Part shown: positions 31,375 to 36,385 of the stretch, in pieces
Numbering within the stretch: position 1 is the first letter of the stretch
Layout of the letters: every line of letters begins with the position of its first letter
Source of the DNA: Oligoflexia bacterium
GTDB taxonomy: Bacteria > Bdellovibrionota > UBA1018
DNA length: 57,277 nucleotides
Reading direction: 5' to 3'
NCBI GenBank assembly: GCA_903881565.1
Contig: CAIRTR010000045.1
Span: 1 to 57,277, forward strand
Program-made: the position numbers and the translations under genes
The notes under the pieces: generated by a model
What the model was told of the DNA's origin: nothing
Databases searched by the model: none
Seen by the model: the letters and a program-made list of their open reading frames with translations, nothing else

Positions 31375-33153
31375 ATGACCTTAAACCGACAGGCCGCCCA
31401 CCTTATTGAGCGCTCCTTTGATGAATTCTTTCGAGAATTCGGTGCCATCACATTAAAGGCCCAAGAACGCTTTGAGAAGCGAAACTGGCACGGCGCACTT
31501 CACGACTCCGTGGAGCGCTTGGATCTGCGCGGGCTTTGGGTTGAAAAAACGATCGCGAAACTCACGGCGCTCCTTGGCCCCCGCCTCGAGGATCGCGACC
31601 TTTGGACTGTGATCAAAGAAGACTATCGCAAAGAGGCGTCACAGCGCCCTGATGTGGAGCTTGCAGAAATCTTCTACAGCTCTGTCACCCGAAAGATTTT
31701 CGCAACCGTCGGCGTCGATCCGTCCGTTGAATTTACCGCTGCCGAATGCTCACAAGGAATGCTGGATCCCTGCCTCGCCGCGGAGATCTTCAAGACATTC
31801 GTTTTTGAGGGAAGTGCAGAGGCGCTGATATCCAGCATTCTGGATTTTTTCAAATTCAAGGTCCCGTTCGCTGATCCCGATCAGGAGGCCGAACGCGCAG
31901 CGGAGGTTCTTCATGGATTTCTCAGCCATACTCCTGACGCAGCCCCCCTGCATTCAGTCGATATTCTGAAGCCCATCTTTTACCGCGGCCACGGCGCCTA
32001 TCTCATCGGTCGACTGTGGCGAGGACTGGAAACGACACCCTTTATCTTGCCCCTATTGAATTCTGATGAAGGAATCCATCTCGATGCCCTTCTCCTGGAA
32101 AAAAGAGATGCCGCGATCGTCTTCAGCTTCACGCGCTCCTACTTTCGGGTCCAGATTGATCGCCCCCATGAAGTGAATCTGTTCTTAAAATCCATCCTGC
32201 CGCTCAAGCGCACGAGCGAGCTCTATATTTCGGTCGGCCACAATAAGTACGGCAAAACCGAGCTTTACCGAGAAATCATGGAAGATCTCGCCTCAACCGA
32301 AGACCAGTTCGAGGTCGCCCCTGGGGACAAGGGGATGGTGATGGCCGTTTTTACGCTTCCCTCACTCAGTCTTGTCTTTAAAGTAATTCGTGACCGCTTT
32401 CCCCCCTCAAAATCCATGACCCCTCAGGAAGTGAAACAAAAATACCAACTCGTCTTTCATCATGACCGAGCCGGCCGCCTGGTAGATGCGCAGGAGTTCG
32501 AACGTCTGAGCTTTGACCTCAAACGCTTCTCCAAGGCCGTATTAGATGAACTGCTTGCGGAGTGTGCGGACACCGTAAAAATCGAAGGCGACCATGTCCT
32601 GATCAAGCACCTTTATGTTGAACGCCGAATCACCCCGTTAAATCTTTTTCTCAGGCAAAGTGATGCGGCCATTGCCGATCAAGCCGTGATTGATTACGGC
32701 CAGTCCCTCAAAGATCTTGCCGCCACGAACACTTTTCCCGGGGATTTGTTACTCAAGAACTTTGGAGTGACTCGGGCTGGGCGCGTGATCTTCTATGATT
32801 ATGATGAACTGGCGCTGGTCGTCGATTGTAATTTCAGGGAGCTGCCCACTGCCTCAACTCATGAAGACGAAACTCGCGGGGAGCCTTGGTTTTATGTTGG
32901 GGAACGCGATATTTTTCCAGAAGAGTTTTTGAGATTTTTGAACTTCTCCGATCGGCAAAGACAGGTTTTTCTTGAACATCACGCAGAGATTCTGACCGCT
33001 GGATTTTGGCTCAAAATGCAGACGCGCTTACGCGCGGGCGAAGTCGTCGACATTTTTCCTTACCGTGAAGACCAACGCCTTTGTAATTTACTAAGAACCT
33101 CCCCTAACTCGAATACGAAAGGAACTTCCCATGAAACTCACCTCCCCACTTAG
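31375..33153 (+). CDS. aceK: Isocitrate dehydrogenase kinase/phosphatase
   Basis: [57 protein letters not shown]. Start reassigned to ATG 31375. Confidence 0.95.
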
Positions 33154-36100
33154 CTCACGCGCCGCTGAAGTCATTAACGAAAAAGCCCTGGCCTTTGTTG
33201 CCGACCTTCATCGCCAATTCAGTTGGCGAGTGGATGAAGTCCTTGCCCGCAGACAAGAACGGCAAGCGCGCTTTGACTCGGGAGAATTGCCGAATTTTCT
33301 TCCTGAGACTGAGAAGACCCGAACCTCAGAGTGGACGGTCGCGCCGCTCCCTCAGGATCTCCTGGATCGCCGAGTTGAGATCACAGGCCCCGTCGAGCGA
33401 AAAATGATCATCAACGCCTTAAACTCAGGCGCTTCGGTTTTCATGGCGGACTTTGAGGACTCCAATTCACCTACCTGGGAAAATGTCACAGAAGGGCAAG
33501 TCAATCTCGCCGATGCGATTCGTCGGACGATCACCTACACCGCAGCCGATACCGGCAAGCATTACAAATTGAACGAAAACCCGGCCGTGCTTTTTGTCCG
33601 CCCACGCGGTTGGCACCTTATCGAAAAGCATATGACGGTGGATGGCCGCAAGACGCCGGCGGCCTTGTTTGATTTTGGGATCTATTTTTTCCACAACGCG
33701 CGCGAACTGATGGCGCGAAAAACGGGACCCTATTTTTATCTGCCTAAAATGGAGAGCCATCTTGAGGCGAAACTTTGGAACGATATCTTTGTGTACGCAC
33801 AGAAGAGGCTTGAGATTCCTCAAGGAACGATCAAGGCGACTTGTTTGATTGAGACCTTGCCTGCGGCGTTTGAGATGAACGAGATCCTGTTTGAACTGCG
33901 CGATCACTCCGCAGGCCTTAATTGCGGCCGTTGGGACTACATTTTTTCGTACATCAAGCGCAATCGCAATAACCCGGCGTTTGTGTTGCCGGATCGCACT
34001 CAAGTCACGATGGACCAGTCGTTTCTCAACGCTTATGTGCAGCTCTTGATTCAGACCTGTCATCACCGAGGCGTGCATGCCATGGGAGGGATGGCGGCTC
34101 AAATCCCGATCAAAGACGATCCAAAAGCCAACGAACTAGCCTTCGCGAAAGTTCGGGCCGATAAACTTCGTGAAGTCAAAGCAGGGCACGATGGAACCTG
34201 GGTCGCCCATCCTGGATTAGTCGGGACCGCCAAAGCCATTTTTGATGAACACATGACGGGCCCCAATCAGCTCTCAAACAAGCGCGAGGACGTGAAGGTC
34301 ACCCAACTCGAACTGCTGGATGTTCCAAAAGGAACCAAGACCGAAGAAGGTCTGCGCCACATGATCCGCGTTTCAATTCAATACATCGAATCTTGGCTCA
34401 GAGGCTCTGGCTGCGTTCCGATCTACAATCTCATGGAAGACGCGGCCACGGCCGAGATCAGTCGCGCCCAGGTCTGGCAATGGATTCGCCACGGAGTCAC
34501 CCTCAGTAACGGCAAACAAGTGACGGCCGCACTCTTTCGCCAAACCTTAGCTGAAGAAATGGACGCGATACATCTTGAAGTCGGGGACCGCAAATACCTG
34601 CAGGGTCGATTCAGTGAAGCCCGCGAGCTTTTTGAAAAGATCTCCACTTCTTCTACGTTTGGCGAGTTTCTGACCCTACCCGCCTACGACGTGCTTACGC
34701 AGGAGTCGAATACTTCCGCCGCGTTTCATCCCGATCCAAGGCGCTGGGAGGGGATCAAACGTAACTACACGGGCACTGATGTGGATAAGCTCAGAGGCAG
34801 TGTGCAAATTGAGCACACGCTGGCCCGCATGGGATCGTTGAGACTCTGGGATCTTCTGCACACCGAACCCTACGTCAATTCGTTGGGAGCGCTCACGGGC
34901 CAACAAGCCGTTCAGATGGTTAAGGCTGGACTCAAGGCGATTTACCTCTCAGGCTGGCAGGTCGCAGCCGATGCGAACAATGCTTCGCAGACGTATCCTG
35001 ACCAATCGCTTTACCCCGCCGACTCCGTTCCAAAAGTCGTTCAACGAATCAATCGCGCGTTTCAGCGCGCGGATCAAATCGCACACTCTGAAGGCAAAGA
35101 TGGGACTCACTGGTTTGCGCCCATTATGGCCGATGCCGAAGCAGGTTTCGGGGGACCGCTGAATGCCTATGAGCTCATGAAGGGAATGATTGAAGCCGGC
35201 GCCGCTGGAGTTCATTTTGAGGATCAAGTGGCGAGTGAGAAAAAGTGCGGGCATTTGGGGGGTAAGGTGCTCGTGCCGGTTTCGCAATTTATTCGTACCC
35301 TCACCGCCGCCCGTCTAGCTGCTGACGTCATGGGCGTGCCGACCTTGCTCGTTGCGCGGACCGATGCGGATTCCGCAAAACTCATTATGAGTGACGTGGA
35401 TCCTTATGATGCGCCTTATGTCGATAAGTCAAAGGGTCGCACGCCAGAAGGGTTTTACTACCTCAAAGGTGGGGTCGATTGCGCGATACATCGGGCTCTG
35501 GCTTACGCTCCTTATGCCGACATCTTGTGGTGTGAAACCTCGAAGCCTGATCTCAAAGAGGCGCGCGAGTTTGCCGAAGGAGTGCATGCGAAATTTCCAG
35601 GCAAGATGCTTGCCTACAATTGCTCTCCCTCCTTTAATTGGAAAAAGAACTTGGACGATGCGACGATTGCGAAGTTTCAAACTGAGCTTGGGGCCATGGG
35701 CTACAAGTTCCAGTTCGTAACCCTTGCCGGTTTCCATGCCTTGAATTTTTCGATCTTCAGTCTAGCGCGTGAGTACCGCGAACGTGGAATGGCTGCGTAC
35801 TCTGAACTGCAGGAAAACGAGTTTGCAGCAGAGAAGTCAGGTTACACGGCCACACGCCATCAACAAGAGGTGGGCACGGGATATTTCGATCAGGTGCTTG
35901 AAGCGATTACGGGCGGACAGTCTTCAACCAAGGCCCTGGAGGGCTCGACCGAAGCCGCGCAATTTACCACCACCGATCGCTTTGCGGCATCACGTGAGAC
36001 GATGTCCAAGGATCACCATCACCTTGATGGCATCATCATGGGGGTTCGTGTTTCGAAAAACTCAAAGGACGCAAAATCAATTACCGCTTCAATTCTGGAG

Positions 36101-36385
36101 CTTGGGAGTTTCCTGAAGGTGCACTTCGAGCGCGAAGAGCATGACGACGGCGTGTTTGGGATTCTGGCCAAGCAAGGCAAAGACGCCCGCGTGGACGGCC
36201 TGATTCAAGAGCACCGCGAAATCAAGCTCGCCATCGATTCGCTGATCTCAGAGTCAAAGCGAGGAGCCTCAACCGATGTGCTCTCAGAGCGTGCAGAGGC
36301 CATCGCAGTCATGCTCAGACAGCACGAACACAAGGAGCATGAGCTGGTCGAATCAATAGCGGTAGCCGAGACCAATCGTCGGTGA
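33131..36385 (+). CDS. aceB-aceA: Fused malate synthase A - isocitrate lyase - hemerythrin-like protein
   Basis: [42 protein letters not shown] (to about 34693). [44 protein letters not shown] (to about 35965). Tail: H..HFEREE..EH..HEHKE. Confidence 0.93.

Follow-up and report, generated by a model that had tools for sequence, protein, structure and literature searches.

Our analysis of a 57,277-nt stretch of DNA from an Oligoflexia bacterium (hereafter, the window) identified a gene, aceB::aceA::hr, that joins malate synthase A (MS), isocitrate lyase (ICL) and a hemerythrin-like (Hr) tail in one predicted polypeptide and is preceded by an overlapping aceK. The explanation that best accounts for the data as a whole, and which we narrowly favor, is an acquired operon whose tail would act as a di-iron switch on the C-terminal lid of ICL. 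An MS-ICL fusion from Anaeromyxobacter dehalogenans was named in print by Kondrashov et al. in 2006 (PMC1630690), and the triple architecture is common in public databases but uncharacterised; new here are the invariance of the putative metal ligands, the gene-fusion series, the apparent horizontal acquisition and the adjacency of aceK. The features of the locus are as follows.

31375..33153, + strand: aceK, isocitrate dehydrogenase kinase/phosphatase, 592 aa from ATG (NF002804, PF20423, PF06315)
33118..33124, + strand: Shine-Dalgarno-like AAAGGAA within the aceK 3' end, 6 nt 5' of the fusion ATG (sequence inspection)
33131..36385, + strand: aceB::aceA::hr fused gene, 1084 aa plus stop, ATG start (single stop-free ORF, profile matches)
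33170..34696, + strand: malate synthase A domain, residues 14-522 (TIGR01344, PF20656, PF01274, PF20659; AF2 pLDDT about 90-98)
34697..34732, + strand: MS-ICL linker, 12 residues, 523-534 (AF2 pLDDT below 50 at 525-533)
34733..35968, + strand: isocitrate lyase domain, residues 535-946, with the canonical C-terminus ...STEAAQF (NF011645, PF00463)
35240..35254, + strand: ICL catalytic motif KKCGH, residues 704-708, intact (translation)
35969..36382, + strand: hemerythrin-like (HHE) four-helix-bundle tail, residues 947-1084 (PF01814, AF2, profile against PDB)
36014..36337, + strand: putative di-metal ligand codons H962 (36014), H998 (36122), E1002 (36134), H1028 (36212), H1065 (36323) and E1069 (36335)

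The open frame of aceK runs from 31135 to 33153, and the ATG at 31375 is M81 of that frame. The match to the AceK profile NF002804 (671.6 bits; cut-off, 488) begins at residue 82, and with its regulatory and kinase domains (PF20423, PF06315) the product belongs to the AceK family. Since the aceK stop codon TAG lies at 33151-33153 and the fusion ATG at 33131, the two genes overlap by 23 nt (33131-33153); no promoter-like site was found in the stretch between them. This layout shows aceK and aceB::aceA::hr to form a predicted two-gene operon, translationally coupled through the overlap. A previous sequence-only reading of this DNA had described the overlap, with the aceK ATG at 31375, and a single 1084-aa ORF composed of MS-A, a linker, ICL with KKCGH intact and a hemerythrin-like tail; all of these details were right, the profile matches lying above their cut-offs. 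An aceBAK-type operon of separate aceB-aceA-aceK was considered and rejected, as the order is aceK followed by the fused gene.

The fusion ORF is confirmed as a real gene. Domain profile scores of the size found here cannot be attributed to chance, and the three parts lie in one frame in 102 homologous proteins from other assemblies. A second assembly, a 12,780-nt Logan contig from run X1, agrees with the window throughout positions 33000-36500 (0 differences, 0 gaps); because the window may itself derive from X1, this is not independent support, and we consider the 102 homologues much the stronger. Runs X2-X4 gave short pieces only, none extending 31 or more letters to each side of a junction, so that these other samples yielded no independent form of the read support called for by the sequence-only reading.

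Both enzyme parts appear complete. The malate synthase part matches TIGR01344 with 858.9 bits (cut-off, 594.5) over profile positions 1-510 of 511, which places it in the malate synthase A family, and it has R159 and D437, which by comparison with E. coli AceB would be the catalytic Arg and Asp and which are kept in 120/120 and 119/120 homologues, respectively. The 12-residue linker that follows is the shortest among the 120 homologues, in which 25-27 residues are typical. The next part is a member of the isocitrate lyase family by NF011645 (751.9 bits; cut-off, 562; profile positions 19-429 of 430) and also scores above the cut-off of TIGR01346 (578.6 bits against 275.9). Within its KKCGH motif, C706, G707 and H708 are present in 120/120 homologues and K704 and K705 in 119/120. 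The C-terminal tail of solved ICLs is described as a lid that shuts the adjacent subunit's active site (PMC8099091). In the window protein the hemerythrin-like tail follows this element with no added linker, the ICL profile ending at residue 946 and the first helix starting at 947/948; across 102 tails, 11-36 residues separate F945 from the first ligand His. The full-length AF2 model (pTM 0.55) has ICL residues 865-945 mostly below pLDDT 50, and its domain arrangement is unreliable, the tail not being placeable relative to ICL.

By profile, the tail is a member of the hemerythrin HHE family PF01814 (residues 956-1072, 32.6 bits; gathering threshold, 25.3), with 36.5 bits in a six-frame search of the genome. 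Modelled alone by AF2 (pLDDT 94.7, pTM 0.86), it is predicted to form a four-helix bundle with helices at 948-978, 981-1003, 1019-1043 and 1048-1083. A tail profile searched against the PDB matched DcrH-Hr at E 6e-6, and YtfE only at E 0.27. DcrH-Hr also matched the model structurally (VIA-align Z 14.6, rmsd 2.5 over 119 residues), and the hemerythrin-family chains 2avk, 4xpw, 2p0n and 6q09 scored Z 11.8-14.6; as designed bundles tied with them, the fold alone is no proof of membership. Foldseek found no match of the tail model in the PDB at E <= 0.001, and the single tail sequence gave nothing meaningful against PDB sequences (best E 0.22, a His-tag-like match). Prediction of a two-copy tail complex scored 0.00 in both runs, a result that is silent on dimerisation either way.

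The bundle carries a 4-His/2-Glu pattern, H962 / H998-x3-E1002 / H1028 / H1065-x3-E1069, which is exactly the H / HxxxE / H / HxxxE spacing reported earlier from the sequence. Among the 102 tails, which are 20-43% identical to that of the window (median 28%), H962, H998, E1002, E1003, H1028, H1065 and E1066 occur in 102/102 and E1069 in 101/102. Invariance of the ligand residues at this median identity argues for selection on the metal site itself, and the same H, F, E, H and E columns show no variation among 49 relatives, most of them stand-alone, with a few rows that are fragments of fused proteins. From this conservation we infer that the bundle would bind two iron ions at the conserved di-metal site. 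The O2-carrying hemerythrins are described as having five His, one Glu and one Asp (PMC9388753), a set (HxxxH, HxxxxD) that the tail lacks: in 102/102 tails the equivalent of the fifth His, four places ahead of H1028, is occupied by L, M, I, F or V, and the HxxxxD position, five beyond H1065, varies (D in 8/102). The bacteriohemerythrin profile TIGR02481 likewise scored 18.1 bits against a cut-off of 51.75, and classical reversible O2 binding is therefore not expected. Membership in RIC/YtfE was also rejected, as the ScdA_N domain was not found and the profile match was weak, though the ligand pattern of the bundle is identical.

The homologue set comprised the 120 top-scoring database clusters, which span 596-1897 aa and include that of the query. 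MS and ICL are both present in 120/120, and the hemerythrin tail in 102/120; the tail-bearing clusters are mostly named Anaeromyxobacter or Anaeromyxobacteraceae and include complete genomes of cultured strains, with triple fusions on 5.06 and 6.72 Mb contigs named Anaeromyxobacter sp. K and A. oryzae. At least 32 of the 81 species genomes in the Anaeromyxobacteraceae family sample have the triple architecture. The window protein is 58-74% identical to the tail-bearing clusters listed among its best matches, with at least 94% of the query covered. This full-length, colinear similarity and its place inside the family tree make it a member of the Anaeromyxobacteraceae-type MS-ICL-Hr family, and demonstrate at the level of sequence that the predicted protein is part of a large family with Anaeromyxobacteraceae at its centre. 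The earlier view that bifunctional glyoxylate enzymes are rare is consequently too strong for bacteria, given the 120 clusters and a further fusion at locus L082. Its author knew of no described triple fusion and allowed that an architecture already common and characterised would undo the idea: common it is (102/120 clusters), characterised it is not. We found no paper mentioning the tail; Fig 4 and S2 of a survey of hemerythrin architectures (PMC4919030) may list the triple fusion, although that survey was built on a stricter O2-binding model.

Relatives with other combinations of these parts form a series. One arrangement keeps the parts as separate genes, aceK-aceB-aceA-hr, and at loci L147 and L148 aceB and aceA are followed by a separate hr gene with a Shine-Dalgarno site and an ATG ahead of it. 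Two-domain ICL-Hr frames occur at loci either without an MS gene or with a separate aceB (L115, L116, L122, L120). A 561-aa ICL+Hr protein was also found, the word-index search aimed at short relatives (ICL-Hr or Hr) returning 2 proteins only. The separate hr beside aceA, together with the ICL-Hr fusions, marks the hemerythrin as a partner dedicated to ICL. The L082 fusion is tail-less, independent and from the window's own taxonomic order, and 17 of the 120 relatives have no tail, including the two closest in the MS-ICL part (P0015 and P0017), so the tail is dispensable in some lineages. Upstream sequence of about 1.5 kb was covered at 19 Anaeromyxobacteraceae-family loci, none of which has aceK directly in front of the fusion; among the fused genes examined, aceK adjoins the fused gene only here.

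RecA places the genome of the window in Bdellovibrionota. The host is a lake bacterium unrelated to Anaeromyxobacter-type bacteria, and its Bdellovibrionota relatives have unfused, distantly related aceB and aceA. In the ICL, MS and concatenated trees, the window falls within clades of Anaeromyxobacteraceae-family rows (97, 93 and 99, the first and last of these starred). Forcing it together with 8 genome relatives costs 205.6 lnL (AU test, p-AU 1.2e-13); nesting of the window inside the donor clade has a p-AU of only 0.027, for a group picked after the tree was seen. The trees and the AU test point to horizontal acquisition of the window copy from an Anaeromyxobacteraceae-type lineage. The GC3 of the fused gene is 0.595, compared with 0.546 +/- 0.046 for its neighbours, a host-like codon composition, the acquisition being old enough for the copy to have taken this on. 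In a same-genus genome, G001, synteny covers window positions 25795-31249, 37914-38684 and 40050-44992 and nothing matches 31250-37913, in a comparison where both contigs end at that gap and the genome is 85% complete. The host genome also encodes an NADP-isocitrate dehydrogenase (TIGR00183, 666 bits) with the serine motif GGGIRSLNVALRQ, which by comparison with E. coli would be the AceK site. The predicted AceK target, an NADP-IDH of the AceK-regulated type, is present in the host genome.

The branch point between the TCA cycle and the glyoxylate shunt is a textbook case of metabolic control, exercised through AceK and transcription. In the mechanism proposed here, the ICL part would form its usual tetramer, thereby also carrying four malate synthases, so that glyoxylate would be made and consumed in one particle. 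The bundle with its two iron ions would sit directly after the last residue of the ICL C-terminal lid; as it is joined to this active-site lid without a linker, the ease of lid closing or the stability of the enzyme could depend on its di-iron state, whether oxidised, reduced, bound to NO or O2, or empty. Flux through the shunt would accordingly track redox, oxidant or iron status, with AceK throttling the competing isocitrate dehydrogenase. Glyoxylate channelling with oxygen or iron regulation, as the sequence-only reading had proposed, is plausible and is strengthened by the ligand conservation and the gene-fusion series. The fuller scheme, in which an allosteric di-iron switch on the ICL lid arose stepwise from a separate gene beside aceA and the cassette moved between phyla with AceK, is possible, and we put it forward tentatively. 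If true, this would be the first central-carbon enzyme with catalysis set directly by a hemerythrin-type sensor of oxidants, NO, O2 or iron.

The tail could instead be a local protector or repair device, its di-iron centre consuming H2O2 or NO or donating iron and so keeping the KKCGH cysteine reduced under oxidative or nitrosative stress, which we consider unlikely. ICL and MS are not known to contain an Fe-S cluster to repair, and one stoichiometric centre per active site would protect poorly unless it turned over. The tail has the ligands of RIC/YtfE-type centres, reported to react with NO and to act under nitrosative and oxidative stress (PMC9268430); the iron-bound Rv2633c-homologue HHE protein 6q09 matches the tail model at Z 11.8; the tail is tethered to the lid over the active site; and the glyoxylate shunt has been tied to oxidative stress (PMC6779741). 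The fusion, however, has no detectable ScdA_N domain, and its profile prefers the sensor domain DcrH-Hr to YtfE by the E-values given above. It is quite doubtful that the tail is an iron gauge setting protein stability, in the manner of BRUTUS/FBXL5-type HHE domains, folding only when iron-loaded so that enzyme level or activity tracks iron rather than O2. Anaeromyxobacter does have an iron- and redox-based lifestyle. BRUTUS stability is described as controlled by its HHE domains in response to iron (PMC5022407), and the shunt is discussed alongside iron limitation in heterotrophic bacteria (PMC11069385), but the direction is awkward, as the shunt is usually wanted at iron scarcity, yet an unfolded apo tail would destabilise the enzyme; nor is a protease or adaptor partner evident in the operon. 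A mere structural bundle aiding assembly or solubility, its His/Glu pattern inherited baggage, would suit the tail-less relatives and the commonness of such shapes, designed bundles scoring as well as hemerythrins, but is very improbable given seven invariant ligand or near-ligand residues in 102/102 tails of such low identity and the stand-alone hr retained beside aceA in L147/L148. Finally, the chance that misassembly or a spurious frameshift merged adjacent genes into the long ORF is practically nil: the window is a metagenome-assembled contig and the sole run with the whole stretch may be its source, but a second assembler gave an identical 3.5 kb, one stop-free three-part frame occurs in 18/30 Anaeromyxobacteraceae-family loci, the layout recurs in 102 database proteins, and the codon composition of the fused gene is uniform.

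Under the di-iron switch reading, a large, unstudied protein family that includes culturable Anaeromyxobacter strains appears to put a conserved di-iron-type domain on the peptide that closes the ICL active site. Should this domain gate or protect the enzyme, it would provide a new route from redox, NO or iron status to carbon flux in metal- and nitrate-respiring bacteria of soil and freshwater. The series from separate gene to ICL-Hr to MS-ICL-Hr offers natural controls, and the passage of the complete unit to Bdellovibrionota suggests a portable module.

A comparison with known systems shows both shared elements and disparities. The Anaeromyxobacter MS-ICL fusions (RefSeq "malate synthase A", about 1100 aa) have the same three-domain order and ligand residues; unlike them, the window gene resides in a Bdellovibrionota host at about 51% GC (against 70-76%), with an overlapping upstream aceK and the shortest MS-ICL linker. 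The available text of Kondrashov et al. (PMC1630690) mentions the fusion and not the tail. According to the same text, Euglena gracilis (MS-ICL, the order of the window) and nematodes (ICL-MS) also carry both shunt enzymes in one polypeptide, but these enzymes are eukaryotic and organellar, with no third domain reported there. The best PDB relative of the tail by profile and fold is DcrH-Hr of Desulfovibrio vulgaris (PDB 2avk, 3waq). Bacterial hemerythrin domains are described as O2 or redox sensors fused to an output domain (PMC9388753); the outputs of such sensors are signalling domains (chemotaxis, c-di-GMP and others), whereas that of the window would be a central-metabolic enzyme, and its tail has four His and two Glu in place of their five His, Glu and Asp. 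RIC/YtfE shares the identical H ... HxxxE ... H ... HxxxE pattern in a four-helix bundle, with a weak sequence relation; the YtfE ligands are given as H84, H129, E133, H160, H204 and E208, and its bundle is described as swapped and left-handed (PMC9268430). M. tuberculosis ICL2 is likewise an ICL with a C-terminal allosteric domain, in that case acetyl-CoA-binding (PMC6788997), but neither that domain nor its ligand is related to those here, the ICL subfamily is another, and there is no malate synthase part. Finally, E. coli aceBAK places the same MS-A, ICL and AceK activities in one transcription unit, whereas in the window K comes first and is translationally coupled, B and A are fused, and a fourth, hemerythrin module is added.

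The sequence-only reading had described a single uninterrupted frame of 1084 amino acids in which malate synthase A (MS) is followed by an isocitrate lyase (ICL) with an intact KKCGH motif and by a hemerythrin-like tail, and division of the protein with NCBIfam and Pfam profiles bears out each of these elements:

33131..36385, + strand: fused gene aceB::aceA::hr, 1084 aa, translated without an internal stop
Residues 14-522: malate synthase A domain (TIGR01344, 858.9 bits; cut-off 594.5)
Residues 535-946: isocitrate lyase domain (NF011645, 751.9 bits against 562)
Residues 704-708: KKCGH motif of the isocitrate lyase domain
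Residues 956-1072: C-terminal hemerythrin HHE domain (Pfam PF01814, 32.6 bits against a gathering threshold of 25.3)

The frame upstream of the fusion encodes AceK (NF002804, 671.6 bits), and because the profile match begins at residue 82 of this long frame, the ATG at 31375 is the likely aceK start, as had been proposed. The aceK stop (TAG, 33151-33153) lies beyond the fusion ATG at 33131, giving the 23-nt overlap already described. A Shine-Dalgarno-like AAAGGAA is located 6 nt 5' of the fusion ATG, and no promoter-like site was found in the aceK-fusion interval; aceK and the fusion are predicted to be co-transcribed. The long aceK frame opens 80 codons ahead of the real start, but an N-terminal AceK extension (31135-31338) was rejected, as its similarity in a genome of the same genus (G001; 54% over 68 residues) contains two stops and is the antisense of a conserved HD-domain gene at 30253-31293. 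The domain junctions, which the sequence-only reading had marked for verification, are reproduced by a 12,780-nt Logan contig from a second assembly (sequencing run X1) with 0 differences across 33000-36500, although X1 is possibly the window's own source.

A homologue search over the 596-1897 aa length range scored 8000 candidates, of which 967 matched at E <= 0.001. Both enzymes are present in all of the best 120 of these 967 matches, of which 102 extend at least 120 aa past the ICL end, 17 extend fewer than 40 aa, and one, a partial record, extends 82 aa. Members with names include Anaeromyxobacter sp. K, A. oryzae and Anaeromyxobacter sp. SG17, together with many Anaeromyxobacteraceae MAGs, and the database annotation of these proteins is merely "malate synthase A". 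Some match was obtained in 79 of 81 species genomes sampled from the Anaeromyxobacteraceae, and among the matches listed at least 32 of the 81 extend to query residue 1073 or further, into the tail. Kondrashov et al. 2006 (PMC1630690) name Anaeromyxobacter dehalogenans as an independent case of fused MS and ICL genes. No mention of a hemerythrin tail on MS-ICL was found in the literature searched, which included the text of a hemerythrin survey (PMC4919030) and of a sensor review (PMC9388753). The MS-ICL-hemerythrin architecture is thus well represented in databases, and no characterisation of it turned up in the literature searched. The sequence-only reading had counted an architecture both common and characterised against itself; the first half of that holds, with 102 of 120 carrying the tail, and nothing to bear out the second was found in the literature searched.

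Within the tail, H962, L995, H998, F999, E1002, E1003, G1007, E1027, H1028, H1065 and E1066 are invariant in 40 aligned triple fusions, and E1069 is nearly so. Across all 102 tails, H962, H998, E1002, E1003, H1028, H1065 and E1066 are conserved without exception and E1069 in 101. Because these residues are kept even though the tails are only 20-43% identical to the window's copy (median 28%; 64-79% for the MS-ICL part), the putative metal site is under selection. The H / HxxxE / H / HxxxE pattern is that of the six ligands of the RIC-type di-iron protein YtfE of E. coli (H84, H129, E133, H160, H204, E208; PMC9268430). The set differs from the five His, Glu and Asp of O2-carrying hemerythrins (PMC9388753), and the position of the absent fifth His is hydrophobic in 102 of 102 tails. 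TIGR02481 scores the tail below its cut-off (18.1 bits against 51.75).

A tail-only search of 1.84 billion representatives found 52 proteins at E <= 0.001, all of 86-276 aa, the majority being stand-alone and about 135-160 aa long; identity peaks at 41-42%, and two that were checked pass Pfam PF01814. A profile of the tail with 49 of the 52 matches the Desulfovibrio vulgaris sensor domain DcrH-Hr (E 6e-6), bacteriohemerythrin (1e-3), NMB1532 (4e-3) and YtfE (0.27). AlphaFold2 predicts a confident four-helix bundle (pLDDT 94.7, pTM 0.86). Foldseek with this model gave no match at E <= 0.001, DcrH-Hr standing at rank 5 (TM 0.70/0.72, rmsd 2.2), and VIA-align scored DcrH-Hr (Z 14.6) equal to designed bundles. 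Assignment of the tail to the HHE/hemerythrin-like superfamily therefore rests on sequence and ligands, and the fold agrees with it. The window's genome encodes eight further PF01814 proteins (contigs C172, C190, C220, C217, C129, C146 and C84; 37-83 bits), one within a 518-aa frame, and all eight outscore the tail.

Intermediate arrangements indicate how the protein was assembled. Two metagenome contigs (L147 and L148; GC 0.71-0.72) carry aceB, then an aceA with a canonical ...STEAAQF and TGA end, then a separate hemerythrin gene whose ATG lies about 20 nt past the aceA stop behind a spacer holding GGGAGG or AAGGAGG; L148 also has an aceK 3' end upstream (54% identical). Of thirty loci from the family sample (L094-L123), 18 encode MS, ICL and tail together in a single frame free of stops. 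ICL and tail share a frame in L115, L116 and L122, with no MS gene detected within the locus and its flanks of about 1.5 kb per side; a frame of the same length is present in L123. In L120 and L121 aceB is a gene of its own, ahead of aceA; the tail lies in the aceA frame of L120, while L121 ends inside aceA, so that its tail rests on a match in that genome (query 529-1074). L111 is a tail-less MS-ICL, L105 and L108 stop short of the tail, and L107, L114 and L119 are interrupted. Elsewhere, L156 encodes ICL-tail followed by aceK, and a 561-aa ICL-hemerythrin protein was found in the database search. In the ICL tree, one 46-row clade (support 94) holds all tail-bearing rows and a few tail-less MS-ICL fusions, with the unfused L147/L148 pair branching at its base. 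Given the separate, ICL-tail and triple forms and this placement, the hemerythrin is a dedicated companion of ICL that was fused to it, with malate synthase fused in front. In the order to which the window's genome belongs, L082 (G050, 1438-4335) encodes a tail-less MS-ICL of about 959 aa in a single frame, with ...STETEQFL at its end; since its domains group with Bdellovibrionota-type enzymes, away from the Anaeromyxobacteraceae type, the two shunt genes have been fused more than once.

The window also carries recA and alaS, and the top-ranking named relatives of its RecA, at about 77-88% identity, come from MAGs of Bdellovibrionota, Bdellovibrionales, Bdellovibrionia and Oligoflexia. Of 60 relatives of the genome, from the same genus out to the same order, 32 have a match to the fusion at 50-69% identity, as separate aceB and aceA plus one tail-less fusion, and among the matches listed none passes query residue 955. 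The window instead falls with Anaeromyxobacteraceae-family rows in a 13-row clade of the ICL tree (support 97), in the corresponding clade of the MS tree (93) and in a 9-row clade of the concatenated tree (99), the host relatives occupying other, well-supported clades in all three. A tree constrained to group the window with its 8 genome relatives is worse by 205.6 log-likelihood units (p-AU 1.2e-13); constraining the other 24 rows of the donor-side clade to exclude it costs 62.8 units (p-AU 0.027), weaker evidence because that group was picked with the tree already in view. AceK identities agree, the window's AceK being 55% identical to that of the Anaeromyxobacteraceae genome G061, while the 60 host relatives yielded just three AceKs, at 37-38%. 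Because both aceK (GC3 0.567) and the fusion (0.595) fall inside the host GC3 range (0.546 +/- 0.046), the transfer is old, or the donor lower in GC. Nineteen loci of the Anaeromyxobacteraceae family extend about 1.5 kb upstream of the gene, and none has an adjoining aceK; the window is so far alone in pairing aceK with the fusion, L148 being an unfused parallel. In L084 (G057, from the host's taxonomic order) aceK, aceB and aceA are three separate genes with aceK first, so both L148 and a relative in that taxonomic order provide examples of this gene order; the L084 AceK shares only 38% identity (41% by tblastn) with the window's.

The same-genus genome G001 (contigs C74 and C387) is syntenic to window position 31249 and again from 37914. 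It has no match in 31250-37913 for aceK, the fusion, the beta-barrel gene or the hipB-like gene, and both contigs end here, which suggests an insertion at 31250-37913 relative to G001. A convergent 195-aa ORF on the - strand (36353-36940) weakly matches an outer-membrane beta-barrel (20.2 bits, below gathering); it shares 33 nt with the 3' end of the fused gene, leaving no room for a terminator between the two. About 0.6 kb 3' of the fused gene lies a hipBA-like toxin-antitoxin pair (37016-38697), in which an HTH_3 protein (37016-37390) overlaps a HipA-family kinase (37342-38697), followed on the opposite strand by an ATPase_2/HTH gene (38700-39965).

The fused protein has both catalytic domains intact and a conserved putative di-metal bundle attached. 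A prokaryotic NADP-IDH encoded in the same genome (TIGR00183, 666 bits) carries the motif GGGIRSLNVALRQ; this serine motif is the AceK target in E. coli. Since the ICL profile match stops at residue 946, one position before the profile end, and the first bundle helix begins at 947/948 in the AlphaFold2 model, we infer that no linker was added between them; from F945, the last ICL residue, to the first ligand His there are 16 residues in the window's copy and 11-36 across the 102 tails. Because the bundle directly continues the C-terminal peptide that closes the neighbouring subunit's active site in solved ICLs (PMC8099091), it would ride on this lid. Lid closure or enzyme stability may then respond to a shift in redox state, binding of NO or O2, or loss of iron at the putative di-iron site. 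We lean slightly toward the putative di-iron tail, with its conserved ligands, being a regulatory switch. A protective or repair centre, built on the same YtfE-like ligand pattern, is a considerably less probable role, and an iron-dependent stability gauge is a little less probable again. A purely structural role for a bundle with invariant candidate ligands is improbable. Glyoxylate channelling between the fused MS and ICL is plausible. The earlier interpretation, channelling with built-in oxygen or iron regulation, is overall partly supported, and the observation beneath it is confirmed.

Further points of interest are the series of fusion states, the predicted tethering of the tail to the lid, and a transfer between phyla that included aceK. 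The fused protein is a member of a common, database-visible but unstudied family, kin to the bifunctional MS-ICL enzymes and to hemerythrin-domain fusions. The proposed switch has a likeness in M. tuberculosis ICL2, where an appended C-terminal domain provides allosteric control of an ICL (PMC6788997).
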